Source of the DNA: Acidobacteriota bacterium
Lineage (GTDB): Bacteria > Acidobacteriota > Thermoanaerobaculia > Gp7-AA8
Length of the DNA: 64,000 nucleotides
Reading direction: 5' to 3'
Assembly (NCBI GenBank): GCA_019244185.1
Contig: JAFATB010000006.1
Span: forward strand, 544,001-608,000
Positions within the stretch are counted from its first letter, which is position 1, and every line of letters starts with the position of its first letter. The notes under the pieces were generated by a model. The model had not been told where the DNA came from. It ran no database searches and worked only from the letters and a program-made list of their open reading frames with translations. The translations under genes were made by a program, and so were the position numbers. Shown here one piece after another: positions 42,209 through 44,988 of this stretch.

Positions 42209-42637
42209 TTACAGAGTCACTTCTTCGAGCACCGCGATGCGGGAGAGGCTGACCGGCAGGGCCACAATGGCGGCGATCCCGGCCACGATCCAGCTCACAA
42301 TGACGGTGCTCATCGCGAGCGAGCTGACGAACATGAAGAACGATTCCGGCGAGGTGAACGGGCTCTGTCCGATGACGGCCGGATTCATGAGCACCGCTCC
42401 GAGTCCGATCAGCGAGAACATCGTCCCCGCAATCACCCCCGCCAGGGCCGCCGCCTTCACGCCTTCCCTCGGCGCGAAGTTGCCGGCCACGAAACCGATT
42501 CCGACGGCGAGCAGCAGCGACAGCATGGCCCGCAGCGAGCCGCTGGCCAGGACGCCCATCCGCATCAGCGGAATCTGCGCGGCCACGCCCGTGAGACCGA
42601 CTGCCACTCCCAATCCGACGACGTGTTTGACGTTCAT
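42209..42637 (-). CDS. Four-TM small membrane protein (candidate immunity/accessory protein)
   Basis: MNVKHVVGLGVAVG...; ATG overlaps the TAA of the upstream enzyme. Confidence 0.7.
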   Translation of the reverse strand: MNVKHVVGLGVAVGLTGVAAQIPLMRMGVLASGSLRAMLSLLLAVGIGFVAGNFAPREGVKAAALAGVIAGTMFSLIGLGAVLMNPAVIGQSPFTSPESFFMFVSSLAMSTVIVSWIVAGIAAIVALPVSLSRIAVLEEVTL

Positions 42638-44988
42638 TACGCGCTCACCCTTTCCTGCACGGTCCCGCAGACGGTGCACTGTTCATTGCGGGGATTGTCT
42701 TGATAGTGGAACTCGAGGCTCGGGACGTTGATGTAGAGCAGGCGTCCCGCGGTCTTGACGTCGCCGAGCTTGGCGAGGTGCAGGACCACTTCGTTCGACA
42801 GCAGTCCGGCCGTCGCGGAGACCATCGGTCCGAGCGTGCCGAACGCGCCGCGGTCGAATTTCGGGAACTCCAGCGGATTGCATTCGAGACAGGCGGACTG
42901 TCCCGGGATCACCGTGGCGCCGACGACCGTGCCCTGCGCGAGGAAGCCGCCGCCCGAGAACGGGATGCCCTTCCGGATGCAGGCTTCATTGATGAGCGTA
43001 ATGGCGTTGACGGGATTGTCGAGGGCGCGCACGACGAAGGTGCTGCCTTCAATGGCCTCGCTGATCTCTTCGACGTTCTGTACGAATTTGTGCGTCTTGC
43101 GGATGCGCAGCTGCGGATTGAATTCGAGCAGGCGCTCGGCGGCGACGTCGACCTTGTAGCGGCCGATGTCGGCGGGCGTGAAGAAGAGCTGGCGATTGAG
43201 GTTGGTGAGCTCGATCTTGTCGGCGTCGACGAGATGCAGTTCGCCGATGCCGCAGGAGGCGAGGTTCCACGCCACGTGCGTGCCCAGTCCGCCGACGCCG
43301 AGGATCGTGACCGACGCATTGCGCAGGCGGTCGAGCGCTTCCAGCTCGCTGCCGCGGACGTTCGCGTTCATGCTGAACCAGCCCAGCTGCCGCGAGTAGC
43401 GGAGATTCTCCTCGCTGAGCTCCCACTCCGACGTATAGCGGAGATAGCGGTGATGCCACAGGCGCTGGATGACGTTCTCGAATTCCGGCAGCCACGCGGC
43501 CTGCTCTTTGAGCCGCGGCAGCGTGTACGAGCCATCGCGCAGCAGCGGGATGAATTCGAAGAGCGACGCCGGCGCCTGCACCGTCAGAGAATCGGGCGCG
43601 GTCCAGCCGAAGATGAATTCCTGGTTGTCCGTACTGATCACGGTGACGTGCGGATTGAGACGGATGGGACGCTCGGGATCGAGCGTGTAGGTGACGAATG
43701 CGGCCGGGGCTTGCTGACGCGGGCGGGGCGCCGCAACCGCGGGCGCCGCGGCGGCGGCCTGTTTGCGCGCCTTGCGCAGTTGCAGTGCGAAGCGGCCGGC
43801 GAACGTCAGCGCGAGGAGGACCACGGCGCCGGCGACGGCCCAGATGCTGGCACGCGACGAGACGCCGAACCAGCTCGCGATGCGGAACAGGAAGCCGAGA
43901 CCGCCCGCCCACATGGCCGTACCGAACCACATCGATGAGATGCCGAAGCAGAACAGGAGCGCGCGGGTCATCGGCGTCAGCGACAGAACCGCGTTGTAGC
44001 GAAGACGCGCGCCCTGTACGGGACGGCGCAGCATCGCGGAGGAGAGCGTCACGCGCACCCACTCGATGCTGCGGTCGCGGAGATTGGTCATCGGCAGCGC
44101 ATTGGAGAGCGCCCAATAGCCGTCCAGACGGACGAACGGCAGCACATTGAGAAGAATCGTGGAGAGATTTGCGGCCGCGAAGATGATCAGCAGGTCCGCA
44201 TTATGGCGGCCCTTCAATGCCAGCCACAGGAACATCGTCCCGCTGGTCACGAGGGCCTGGACATAAACGCCGGCAGAGGAGATGACCACGCGTTGCCAGC
44301 GATTGCGCAATTGCCACGAGTCTGTAATGTCCGCGTAGGCGGCCGGCTGCAGGTAATACAGCATGACGCCGAGACTGCGCACCGGCGCGCCATAATGGTG
44401 GCAGGCCGCCGCATGTCCCAATTCATGAATGAAGGTGACGAGGAAAAACAGGCCGACGATCGTCGCGATCTGCACCGCCGTGAAATTCACGGTGCGGAAG
44501 ACGTGGCCGATCTCGCCGCCGTGCGAAATCCCAACACCGAGCGCAATGACGGAGATGAGAATTCCGAGCGCGACGACCGAGCGCTTCATCATGACGCGCG
44601 TGAAGGGCGACAGCCACTCCAATAACGGGTCGGGTTTTCCGAGGTGAATGCGCAGCTGGCCGAAACGGCCCCATTCGAAGCGGCGTTGCGCGGCAGGAGT
44701 TTCTTCCGCCTGCTGGACGACCTGCAGCTTCACAGGCTCGGCGCTCATGCAGATCAACTTCGCTGCCTGGAGGCGGCGAAGGAGCTCTTCGCCCATGGAC
44801 GCCTCGATTCCGAGGAGCGCTGCGATCTCCTGTTCGGCGACCTGGCCGTCAATGCGCATCAGCCAGTCGAATTCGCGCAGACCGAGCCGCAGGTAACGGC
44901 CGGTTTCGTGATTGAGCACGAGTCTCGAATCAGGCTCCGGCTGCGGGAGATCCATTTGCAGCTTCGGATTTCGATAGGGGTAGGCCAT
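42637..44988 (-). CDS. Fused RiPP maturase: RRE-like + M50 intramembrane metalloprotease + linker/RRE-like + ThiF adenylyltransferase
   Basis: LVLNHETGRYLRLG...DG PqqD-like start; HELGH and NVLPFVRLDGY M50 motifs; RYSRQ, GVGGLG, VDADKIELTNLNRQ, CLEC and CTVC ThiF motifs. Confidence 0.9.
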   Translation of the reverse strand: MAYPYRNPKLQMDLPQPEPDSRLVLNHETGRYLRLGLREFDWLMRIDGQVAEQEIAALLGIEASMGEELLRRLQAAKLICMSAEPVKLQVVQQAEETPAAQRRFEWGRFGQLRIHLGKPDPLLEWLSPFTRVMMKRSVVALGILISVIALGVGISHGGEIGHVFRTVNFTAVQIATIVGLFFLVTFIHELGHAAACHHYGAPVRSLGVMLYYLQPAAYADITDSWQLRNRWQRVVISSAGVYVQALVTSGTMFLWLALKGRHNADLLIIFAAANLSTILLNVLPFVRLDGYWALSNALPMTNLRDRSIEWVRVTLSSAMLRRPVQGARLRYNAVLSLTPMTRALLFCFGISSMWFGTAMWAGGLGFLFRIASWFGVSSRASIWAVAGAVVLLALTFAGRFALQLRKARKQAAAAAPAVAAPRPRQQAPAAFVTYTLDPERPIRLNPHVTVISTDNQEFIFGWTAPDSLTVQAPASLFEFIPLLRDGSYTLPRLKEQAAWLPEFENVIQRLWHHRYLRYTSEWELSEENLRYSRQLGWFSMNANVRGSELEALDRLRNASVTILGVGGLGTHVAWNLASCGIGELHLVDADKIELTNLNRQLFFTPADIGRYKVDVAAERLLEFNPQLRIRKTHKFVQNVEEISEAIEGSTFVVRALDNPVNAITLINEACIRKGIPFSGGGFLAQGTVVGATVIPGQSACLECNPLEFPKFDRGAFGTLGPMVSATAGLLSNEVVLHLAKLGDVKTAGRLLYINVPSLEFHYQDNPRNEQCTVCGTVQERVSA

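Follow-up and report, generated by a model that had tools for sequence, protein, structure and literature searches.

A membrane M50 protease fused to a ThiF-type adenylation domain and encoded beside daptide-like precursor peptides in an Acidobacteriota genome

Known ThiF-like and daptide systems, and the fused gene

ThiF-like enzymes that act on peptides made by the ribosome and modified after translation (RiPPs), namely MccB, PaaA, GrcB, EnfB and IndF, adenylate a carboxylate, which is then attacked by a nucleophile of the peptide (as given in the available text of PMC12250964, PMC12150305 and PMC12596934). According to the same portions of these sources, MccB acts on a C-terminal Asn, PaaA on a pair of Glu residues and GrcB on a Glu that is linked to a C-terminal Cys as a thiolactone, while EnfB produces an imide or an amide and IndF joins the indole nitrogen of a Trp to the C-terminus. 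Daptides are made by a second kind of system, whose protease has a RiPP recognition element (RRE) at its N-terminus, according to the available part of bioRxiv 10.1101/2023.03.08.531785. Here we describe a gene that appears to bring the two kinds of enzyme together in one protein. It lies in a 64,000-nucleotide stretch of DNA from a soil bacterium of the Acidobacteriota (contig JAFATB010000006.1; this whole stretch is referred to as the window), at one end of a cluster that spans approximately positions 37752 to 45006 and whose listed genes are all on the minus strand. The gene and its parts are as follows.

42637..45006, minus strand: fusion gene encoding RRE1, M50 protease, linker, RRE2 and ThiF domain (list of open reading frames, translation, Pfam, NCBIfam, 38-sequence alignment)
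44737..44940, minus strand: RRE1, residues ~23-90, putative N-terminal winged-helix, PqqD-like leader-binding domain (NF041824 match from residue 23, alignment to protein P0055, structural model)
43750..44631, minus strand: M50/site-2-protease membrane domain, residues ~126-419, with six hydrophobic helices (PF02163, NF041824, hydropathy, helices of the model)
43705..43749, minus strand: Ala/Pro-rich disordered linker, residues ~420-434 (low model confidence, variable across the family)
43417..43704, minus strand: RRE2, residues ~435-530, predicted N-terminal domain of an MccB-type enzyme (structural alignment to MccB and PaaA)
42637..43416, minus strand: ThiF/E1-type adenylation domain, residues ~531-789, with two CxxC pairs (Pfam ThiF; matches to MccB, MoeB and ThiF)

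The open reading frame translates to 789 residues. Its true start is more likely to be the codon of Met7, at position 44988, because most full-length homologues in an alignment of 38 family members begin at the equivalent M(S/G)YPYRNP. An original prediction, made from the letters alone, had read this protein as intact HELGH and NxxPxxxLDG zinc-protease motifs in a region with several transmembrane segments, an Ala/Pro linker and a complete ThiF domain, and each of these features is borne out. HELGH lies at residues 194-198, at the end of a hydrophobic segment (175-193), and NVLPFVRLDG, which fits NxxPxxxLDG, the second motif and source of the third zinc ligand, at 287-296; the ThiF half contains RYSRQ (536-540), GVGGLG (570-575, the GxGGxG motif), NLNRQ (602-606) and the CxxC pairs CLEC (706-709) and CTVC (777-780). 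Peptidase_M50 (PF02163) matches with an E-value of 4.4e-9 and 36.5 bits against a gathering cut-off of 27.2, over profile positions 3-99 of 221 only, and Pfam ThiF (PF00899) with an E-value of 1.1e-50 and 172.4 bits against a cut-off of 28.1. NF041824, an equivalog model for the daptide intramembrane metalloprotease, matches residues 23-407 (E 1.8e-67; profile positions 13-376 of 379) at 228.1 bits, or 230.3 bits in the genome search, without reaching its cut-off of 300 bits. There is also a weak local match of residues 733-784 to TIGR03603 (SagC-type; E 2.2e-6). The Ala/Pro-rich region extends over residues ~413-434, and the sequence and length of the linker differ among the members of the 38-sequence alignment. 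These motif and domain matches are far beyond chance, and we regard the four-domain architecture as almost certainly real.

In the 38 aligned members the zinc-protease residues H194, E195, H198, N287, P290, D295 and G296 are invariant, as are, in the ThiF half, RYSRQ, the four glycines of GxGGxG (G570, G572, G573 and G575), D594, NLNRQ including R605 and Q606, K618, D663 and the four zinc-type cysteines of both CxxC pairs. We take the contacts of these ThiF-domain residues with ATP and Mg to be those of the corresponding residues of MoeB. The assignment also draws on EnfB as presented in PMC12250964. Such invariance in the ThiF half argues for an active enzyme, to judge from the sequences. The protein has no Cys between C709 and C777, and likewise none in the crossover loop of the alignment, where the conserved residues are D718 and R719; the canonical catalytic Cys that E1 enzymes use for a thioester step thus appears to be missing.

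The full-length protein was modelled with AlphaFold2 from the 38-row alignment, with a mean predicted local distance difference test score (pLDDT) of 83.6 and a predicted template modelling score (pTM) of 0.56; pLDDT falls below 50 at residues 420-432. E. coli MccB is the closest solved relative by sequence (E 7.5e-36, with MoeB at 4e-23) and also the top Foldseek match of the model (E 8.2e-22, template modelling score 0.83 on the target), followed by PaaA and then by ThiF, an E1 enzyme and MoeB. Structural alignment with VIA-align placed model residues 446..784 on residues 1..350 of the MccB chain (Z 34.0, root-mean-square deviation 3.4, 331 residues aligned) and residues 451..774 on 11..374 of PaaA (Z 29.0), while MoeB and ThiF covered only 530..781 (Z 31). 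Since 446..784 covers both domains of MccB, the middle segment would be the N-terminal domain of an MccB-type enzyme; in the model this region has strands within 436-477 followed by helices at 482-491, 496-500 and 507-518. We take the N-terminal domain of MccB to be what is known as its "peptide clamp", and count it as an RRE. The predicted protein thus has a leader-binding RRE or peptide clamp directly N-terminal to its ThiF domain, as RiPP ThiF-like adenylyltransferases do. The original prediction of a second peptide-binding domain in this segment of ~100 residues agrees with the superposition on the whole of MccB.

The N-terminal 108 residues were folded alone with 14 diverse homologues. 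In the resulting model the block means of pLDDT are 71-92 up to residue 70 and 60 at 71-80; it contains strands at 10-15 and 20-25 and helices at 26-34, 41-48 and 52-64 (numbering of the construct). Compared with 48,161 representative chains, it matched best TigE (Z 7.1), MibB (6.2), TbiB1 with leader (5.6), CteB (5.4) and lasso B1 with leader (5.2), with the PbtF RRE (4.8), the MccB N-terminal domain (4.7) and PqqD (4.6) further down; RRE-bearing chains stood at ranks 1, 2, 6, 9, 11, 20, 35, 45 and 47 (Z 7.1 to 4.6). We presume TigE, MibB and CteB to contain RREs, whereas for TbiB1, lasso B1 and PbtF this is stated in the titles of the structures. Residues 35-87 align to a stretch of P0055 that Pfam calls PqqD (E 2e-10). 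Searching PDB sequences with a profile of the N-terminal domain gave no significant match, the best RRE being that of PbtF (E 0.23). Taken with the modelled winged-helix elements, these matches provide moderate evidence for an RRE-like winged helix at the N-terminus. The kind of fold on which the original prediction had made its reading depend is found in the middle segment and is likely in the N-terminal one.

Hydropathy picks out six hydrophobic segments, at ~143-161, 175-193, 246-264, 272-290, 340-367 and 386-404. Loops rich in Lys and Arg (194-245, 291-338 and just past 404) fall on the same side as both termini, and the loops poor in these residues on the opposite side, which would place both RREs, the ThiF domain, HELGH and the LDG motif in the cytoplasm. 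A cytoplasmic position is also what an ATP-using ThiF domain requires.

Precursor peptides and the spread of the family

Two types of candidate precursor peptide are encoded in the cluster, by four small genes.

39857..39979, minus strand: type B precursor, 40 residues, with leader IEEMExxVAP and a DF and GxxxG core, ending CGGA (weak match to NF041806, daptide MpaA2, E 0.008)
39647..39769, minus strand: type A precursor, copy 1, 40 residues from an MNNM start inside the open reading frame 39647..39826, ending ALSS (core identical to copy 2)
39451..39573, minus strand: type A precursor, copy 2, 40 residues, ending ALSS (NF041808, E 0.11)
37752..37895, minus strand: second type B gene, 47 residues as listed or 40 from an inner Met, ending CGGA (NF041806, E 0.002)

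Both types share the acidic leader (L/V)MIEEMExxVAP and have hydrophobic cores rich in GxxxG, of the form DF...GxxxG in type B and W..AGAGAG in type A, and the daptide precursor models match them weakly (E 0.002-0.11). Peptides of types A and B also occur beside the enzymes in Acidobacteriota, Clostridia, lactococci, a streptococcal-family genome and Actinomyces. The co-occurrence of an M50 protease, a ThiF protein and two peptides across phyla is strong comparative evidence that they work together.

A script for precursors returned 52 distinct candidates across the related loci, one of them clearly false, leaving 51 that we treat as real. These are 34 to 46 residues long, with cores of 21 to 30 residues that resemble a single transmembrane helix. 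A Cys is found among the last four residues of 48/51 and is the final residue in 24/51. The peptides end in C (16), CSS (6), CD (6), CGGC (6), CGGA (6), CS (5), CGC (2) or CAS (1), so that the only residues following this Cys are S, A, G, D or C. None of the 51 ends in Thr, as daptide precursors do, or in Asn, as does the microcin C precursor. Type B cores have a conserved Asp, that of the DF motif, and many type A cores begin with an acidic residue; the cores of type A in the window, of type A in locus L092 and of the peptide in L093 contain neither Asp nor Glu. Because several cores are of this kind, the C-terminus is the sole carboxylate common to all of the precursors.

A protein search over 5.8 billion clustered proteins, in which 8000 candidates were scored at a threshold of E <= 0.001, found 87 proteins. 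Among these scored candidates, 43 clusters, including that of the query, contained both Pfam domains, at 44-100% identity; three further matches are fragments with the ThiF domain only. The few source names attached to these clusters are Acidobacteriota (Thermoanaerobaculia and Bryobacteraceae). The fusion gene is present in a single copy in its 5.3-Mb genome, and a search of 400 further genomes sampled from the phylum did not find it (E <= 1e-40). In 2-kb bins the G+C content is 0.607 at 38001-40000 and 0.613 at 44001-46000, while the rest of the window is mostly at 0.65-0.71. The somewhat lower G+C content of the cluster, taken with the absence of the gene from the 400 genomes, hints at horizontal acquisition, and the distribution can reasonably be read as patchy and bacteriocin-like.

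A search of genome contigs for related loci found no relative with the single protein sequence as query; the alignment as query returned loci from genomes and metagenomes, assigned to Acidobacteriota, Clostridia, Lactococcus, Pseudolactococcus, a further streptococcal-family genome and Actinomyces, in addition to metagenomes. According to a motif-based script, 42 loci have M50 and then ThiF on one strand, fused in 13/42 and as separate neighbours in 29/42. The 13 fused loci are all close relatives, and the 29 split loci keep a nearly constant spacing; the fusion occurs in Acidobacteriota, and adjacency of the genes in Firmicutes and Actinomyces. In the split form the ThiF protein has, besides an RRE of its own, a C-terminal membrane extension of ~105-140 residues past the last CxxC, so that ThiF appears always to be tethered to the membrane, either by fusion to the M50 protease or through its own extension.

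Several individual loci show further features. In L096, a close relative, M50 and ThiF lie in separate open frames, and in L004 (9034-9347) the N-terminal part of the fusion matches as two overlapping pieces in different frames; either may reflect an assembly error or decay. In the streptococcal-family locus L086 (2099-2306, minus strand) the protease RRE region consists of two short open reading frames before an M50 open reading frame of 282 residues, and the protease RRE there may be split off or degraded. Many assemblies of a single metagenome series (L012, L108, L123, L129, L136 and six more ERZ77... loci) contain an Actinomyces-type version that hardly varies among them, and its type A peptide always ends in ACD.

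Comparison with described enzymes and the candidate reactions

The ThiF half of the fusion is closest to the E. coli enzyme that makes microcin C7, the synthetase MccB (PDB 3H5A, 3H9G, 6OM4). MccB likewise consists of an N-terminal domain and a ThiF domain with a four-Cys site, and it modifies a short ribosomal peptide at the C-terminal carboxylate, the target we propose here. MccB differs in that it requires a C-terminal Asn and forms an N-P bond with a second ATP (available text of PMC12250964), and in that it is soluble and fused to no protease, whereas the substrates here would be hydrophobic, 34 to 46 residues long and equipped with a leader that can be cut off. PaaA, of the pantocin A pathway (PDB 5FF5), shares the RRE and ThiF fold (Z 29.0) but targets an internal Glu-Glu pair, and no such motif is conserved here. 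The streptococcal and enterococcal enzymes GrcB, EnfB and IndF resemble the fusion in combining an RRE with a ThiF domain, in ATP-dependent adenylation of a carboxylate and in the use of a nucleophile of the peptide, which in GrcB is the thiol of a conserved C-terminal Cys. In contrast, as described in the accessible parts of the literature, they are soluble and act on short signalling-type peptides, with motifs (E..C, WWIVI and NWYFI) that are absent here; no M50 pairing or fusion is described there for these enzymes, and IndF pairs with an M16 protease.

The protease half has its closest counterpart in the daptide peptidase MpaP/DapP (NF041824), which also combines an N-terminal RRE with an intramembrane site-2-type protease. 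The daptide leader ELExMEAP is cut after Pro and invites comparison with IEEMExxVAP here, and daptide clusters, too, encode several hydrophobic precursors and direct their chemistry at the C-terminus (10.1101/2023.03.08.531785, available part). Unlike daptides, however, the precursors of this family do not have the invariant C-terminal Thr, and the protease scores 228 bits, below the 300 bits of NF041824. A ThiF enzyme here takes the place of the daptide set of aminotransferase, methyltransferase and alcohol dehydrogenase, families for which no match was found among the proteins scanned from ~32500 to 48800. Two other architectures are partly similar. Fusions of RRE, M50 and HlyD (P0047 and P0055) also join a PqqD-type RRE to an M50 protease, with 30% identity over residues 35-316, but at the C-terminus they carry a periplasmic HlyD adaptor where the window's protein has a cytoplasmic RRE-ThiF unit. 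Streptococcal "CxxxC-type" clusters, known to us from a partial text description (bioRxiv 10.1101/2024.05.13.593846), are said there to include a "TLAT-peptidase fusion", in which an uncharacterised ThiF-like enzyme is joined to a peptidase, and to encode precursors whose C-terminal residue is strictly conserved, whereas the streptococcal-family relatives of the window have split genes and precursors ending in a single Cys; the "CxxxC-type" clusters might be related to the family.

Neither an M50 partner nor a membrane-bound form is described for ThiF-like RiPP enzymes in the available text of PMC12250964, PMC12150305, PMC12596934 and the primary literature. The word "ThiF" does not occur in the daptide papers (including 10.1101/2023.03.08.531785), and no description of an M50-ThiF fusion or pairing turned up in the accessible text of the literature searched. 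ThiF-like RiPP enzymes and the daptide-type protease are known, and what appears to be new is a ThiF-like RiPP enzyme tied to an M50 leader protease at the membrane.

We propose that the gene encodes a bifunctional, membrane-anchored RiPP maturase. RRE2 would bind the leader and feed the C-terminal tail, with its small residues, into the MccB-like ThiF site, where the C-terminal carboxylate would be adenylated with ATP; the conserved Cys or Ser among the last four residues, of the same or the partner peptide, would then capture the adenylate through its thiol or hydroxyl, yielding a (thio)ester without the terminal negative charge. RRE1 would bind the same leader and present the junction of leader and core, after AP, to the M50 site facing the cytoplasm, where it would be cut; RRE2-ThiF should thus act on the leader-bearing precursor before RRE1-M50 removes the leader. 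The sequences show the four-domain architecture, the intact catalytic motifs, the conserved partnership of the genes and the conserved features of the precursors, whereas the catalytic steps, their order, and the nature and activity of the product are all inferred. As a whole, with its terminal Cys/Ser capture, we would give this explanation an even chance. Its parts differ in strength: adenylation of a precursor carboxylate by the ThiF domain is likely, the identity of that carboxylate with the C-terminus is an assignment towards which we lean, and the role of the conserved Cys or Ser as the capturing nucleophile is a tentative suggestion. That one protein both cuts the leader and activates the C-terminus, as originally predicted, is supported by homology and by the precursor genes; of the three outcomes then envisaged, a (thio)ester or ligation to another nucleophile is possible, and head-to-tail cyclisation is the least likely.

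A number of observations tell against this scheme. Peptides of three types, ending TS, VS and SS and found in the window, L001 and L004, have no Cys at all, although the partner peptide in each of these loci has one, and clostridial candidates in L047, L035 and L158 end in GGE or GVGD, also without Cys. A single intramolecular thiolactone cannot fit all of the peptides, since for the 24/51 that end in Cys it would be a strained four-membered ring, and the conserved Cys could instead serve in a disulfide, in lipidation or in metal binding. On the structural side, the pTM of 0.56 leaves the placement of the domains relative to one another uncertain, MarR-type winged helices are interleaved with the RRE matches of the N-terminal domain at similar Z, with none at Z 8, and Foldseek gave that domain no match at E <= 0.001, the best being PqqD 3G2B (E 0.073). 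The adenylate might be captured by a thiol of the partner, a backbone nitrogen or an amine from outside.

The clostridial candidates lie at 8558-8906 of L047, 952-1053 of L035 and 3558-3906 of L158; they are duplicated in L047 and L158, and M50 and ThiF are split in these loci. The GGE and GVGD variants may form a separate subgroup. We also considered a disulfide-linked heterodimer of A and B and set it aside, because the window, L001 and L004 each have one partner that lacks Cys. A prediction of the complex of two copies of residues 435-789 with a type B precursor alignment and ATP gave a score of 0.03 (mark 0.32), which speaks neither for nor against the scheme.

An alternative that retains activation of the C-terminus is that the adenylate is resolved by an external nucleophile, such as ammonia, a free amine, an amino acid or the head group of a lipid, to give a C-terminal amide or conjugate, with the Cys in a separate role. 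It would suit every C-terminal ending seen and the constant tethering of ThiF to the membrane, EnfB can amidate its activated C-terminus with available amines (PMC12250964, accessible portion), and loss of the C-terminal charge would parallel what the daptide enzymes do to similar hydrophobic peptides (10.1101/2023.03.08.531785, accessible portion). However, it leaves unexplained the Cys among the last four residues of 48/51 precursors, and the Pfam and NCBIfam scans found no amine-supplying gene in the cluster; we consider it unlikely.

The conserved Cys would be put to use in a macrocycle of the kind made by GrcB, an RRE-ThiF enzyme that joins a Glu side chain to a C-terminal Cys (available text of PMC12250964 and PMC12150305). 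Here the ThiF domain would adenylate an Asp or Glu side chain near the start of the core, and attack by the C-terminal Cys would give a large thiolactone over nearly the whole core. The conserved Asp of type B and the acidic start of many type A cores suit this reading, but the cores of type A in the window and in L092 and that of L093 have no acidic residue to offer, and the linked residues, four apart in GrcA, would be 15 to 25 apart in these peptides, which resemble a transmembrane helix. We regard a macrocycle of this kind as improbable.

Head-to-tail cyclisation, in which the protease would free the amine of the core with the adenylated C-terminus kept in place by the fused ThiF domain, so that the two ends join, is suggested by the fusion itself, with both activities in one protein and on the same face of the membrane, and needs no conserved side-chain nucleophile. 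Yet protease and ThiF are separate proteins in 29/42 loci, and the presence of a leader-binding domain for each catalytic domain suggests that ThiF acts on the leader-bearing peptide before cleavage. A circular product would, moreover, leave the conserved Cys unexplained, cores that form a single hydrophobic helix of 21 to 30 residues are awkward for joining end to end, and such joining is not described for the known ThiF-like RiPP enzymes in the available text of PMC12250964 and PMC12596934, so that we find this outcome highly doubtful. Least credible of all is a ThiF domain that does not modify peptides, serving as a docking scaffold like that of azoline cyclodehydratases, as ThiF-like domains of YcaO systems do exclusively (PMC12150305, available text) and as the weak local SagC-type match might suggest, or activating a sulfur carrier or other protein, since the nucleotide-binding and Mg residues are all invariant, the domain has its own MccB-type N-terminal domain (RRE2), YcaO (PF02624) had no match in the window's genome (98.9% complete; control genomes gave matches) and no ThiS/MoaD-like gene was found in the cluster (open reading frames, Pfam, NCBIfam).

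Cluster neighbours and meaning of the family

Downstream of the fusion gene follow, in order, genes for a small membrane protein, a Yip1/YknW-like protein and a HlyD/MacA-type protein, three of the small precursor genes, a MacB-type permease gene and the fourth small gene.

42209..42679, minus strand: small membrane protein, 156 residues as listed (probable start Met15 at 42637, giving 142 residues)
41407..42174, minus strand: Yip1/YknW-like membrane protein (Pfam Yip1, E 1.1e-6; NF052650 YknW, E 6.9e-8, below cut-off)
40139..41410, minus strand: HlyD/MacA-type periplasmic adaptor (TIGR01730, 172.7 bits, cut-off 94.9; Pfam HlyD_D23 and HlyD_3)
38016..39341, minus strand: MacB-type ATP-binding cassette (ABC) permease, 441 residues (MacB_PCD and FtsX; Pfam, NCBIfam)

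The ATG of the small membrane protein shares one base with the TAA of the fusion. The protein matches no Pfam or NCBIfam family, and the ESM Atlas, whose record begins at residue 15, gave none at >= 0.9 and no family. A gene for it also lies directly 3' of the fusion gene in L001, L002, L004 and L005; in L002 (11328-11756) it has an in-frame stop, by assembly error or decay possibly. We considered whether the small membrane protein is the counterpart of the C-terminal membrane extension of the split ThiF of Firmicutes; hhalign gave a probability of 0.45%, and no similarity was detected. The protein was aligned across L001, L004 and L005, with L002 left out.

The permease at 38016..39341 has no ATPase domain, and no ABC ATPase family matched the other scanned proteins of the cluster. 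Among related loci, the Yip1/HlyD/MacB set is common only to the window and L001. In Bacillus subtilis, a similar set of genes, YknW/X/Z, gives protection from the peptide toxin SDP. Judging by the YknW/X/Z-like genes and by the hydrophobic cores with GxxxG, the product is probably a two-peptide membrane-active toxin, in which the A and B products would act together, with the YknW/HlyD/MacB-like genes and the small membrane protein providing export and self-protection.

A pattern scan of the cluster found no sigma-70-like promoter site and 5 terminator-like sites against 6.1 expected. The flanks are housekeeping, with a DNA polymerase III delta-like (holA-like) gene on the upstream side and genes for MFS and LamB proteins on the downstream side. 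A gene for a sigma-54 activator (Sigma54_activat and HTH_8) without an obvious receiver domain is found at 47829-48761 (minus strand), ~3 kb upstream of the cluster. A few kb downstream, an eCIS-core protein (PF13699, E 1.2e-26) adjoins a subtilase S8 protein (33991-35472 and 32506-33903, both minus strand); no link of this pair to the fusion was seen.

It is possible, though we would rate it somewhat below an even chance, that the family represents an undescribed RiPP class spanning several phyla, in which two partner peptides on a daptide leader and protease chassis receive from a membrane-tethered ThiF enzyme a Cys-centred C-terminal modification that differs from the five known ThiF-like reactions. 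In one concrete form, the Cys of one peptide and the adenylated C-terminus of the other would be joined as a thioester, giving a covalent two-peptide toxin.

ThiF-like enzymes are a recently opened source of chemistry that cyclises peptides or modifies their C-termini, and those in the literature, as far as the available text of PMC12250964, PMC12150305 and PMC12596934 extends, are soluble. In the family described here a ThiF enzyme is physically tied to a leader protease at the membrane and paired with daptide-like hydrophobic precursors. If the proposed reaction is correct, one or two enzymes and two peptides, with homologues in culturable lactococci, would form a compact system for testing a possibly new C-terminal reaction, the ThiF enzymes would be candidate ATP-driven tools for activating peptide C-termini, and the daptide chassis would have been reused with a different tail chemistry. 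The two-peptide bacteriocins may also gain a new group from this family. Lastly, if it does represent a new class, then modules for C-terminal tailoring would have been swapped on one precursor scaffold in the course of evolution.

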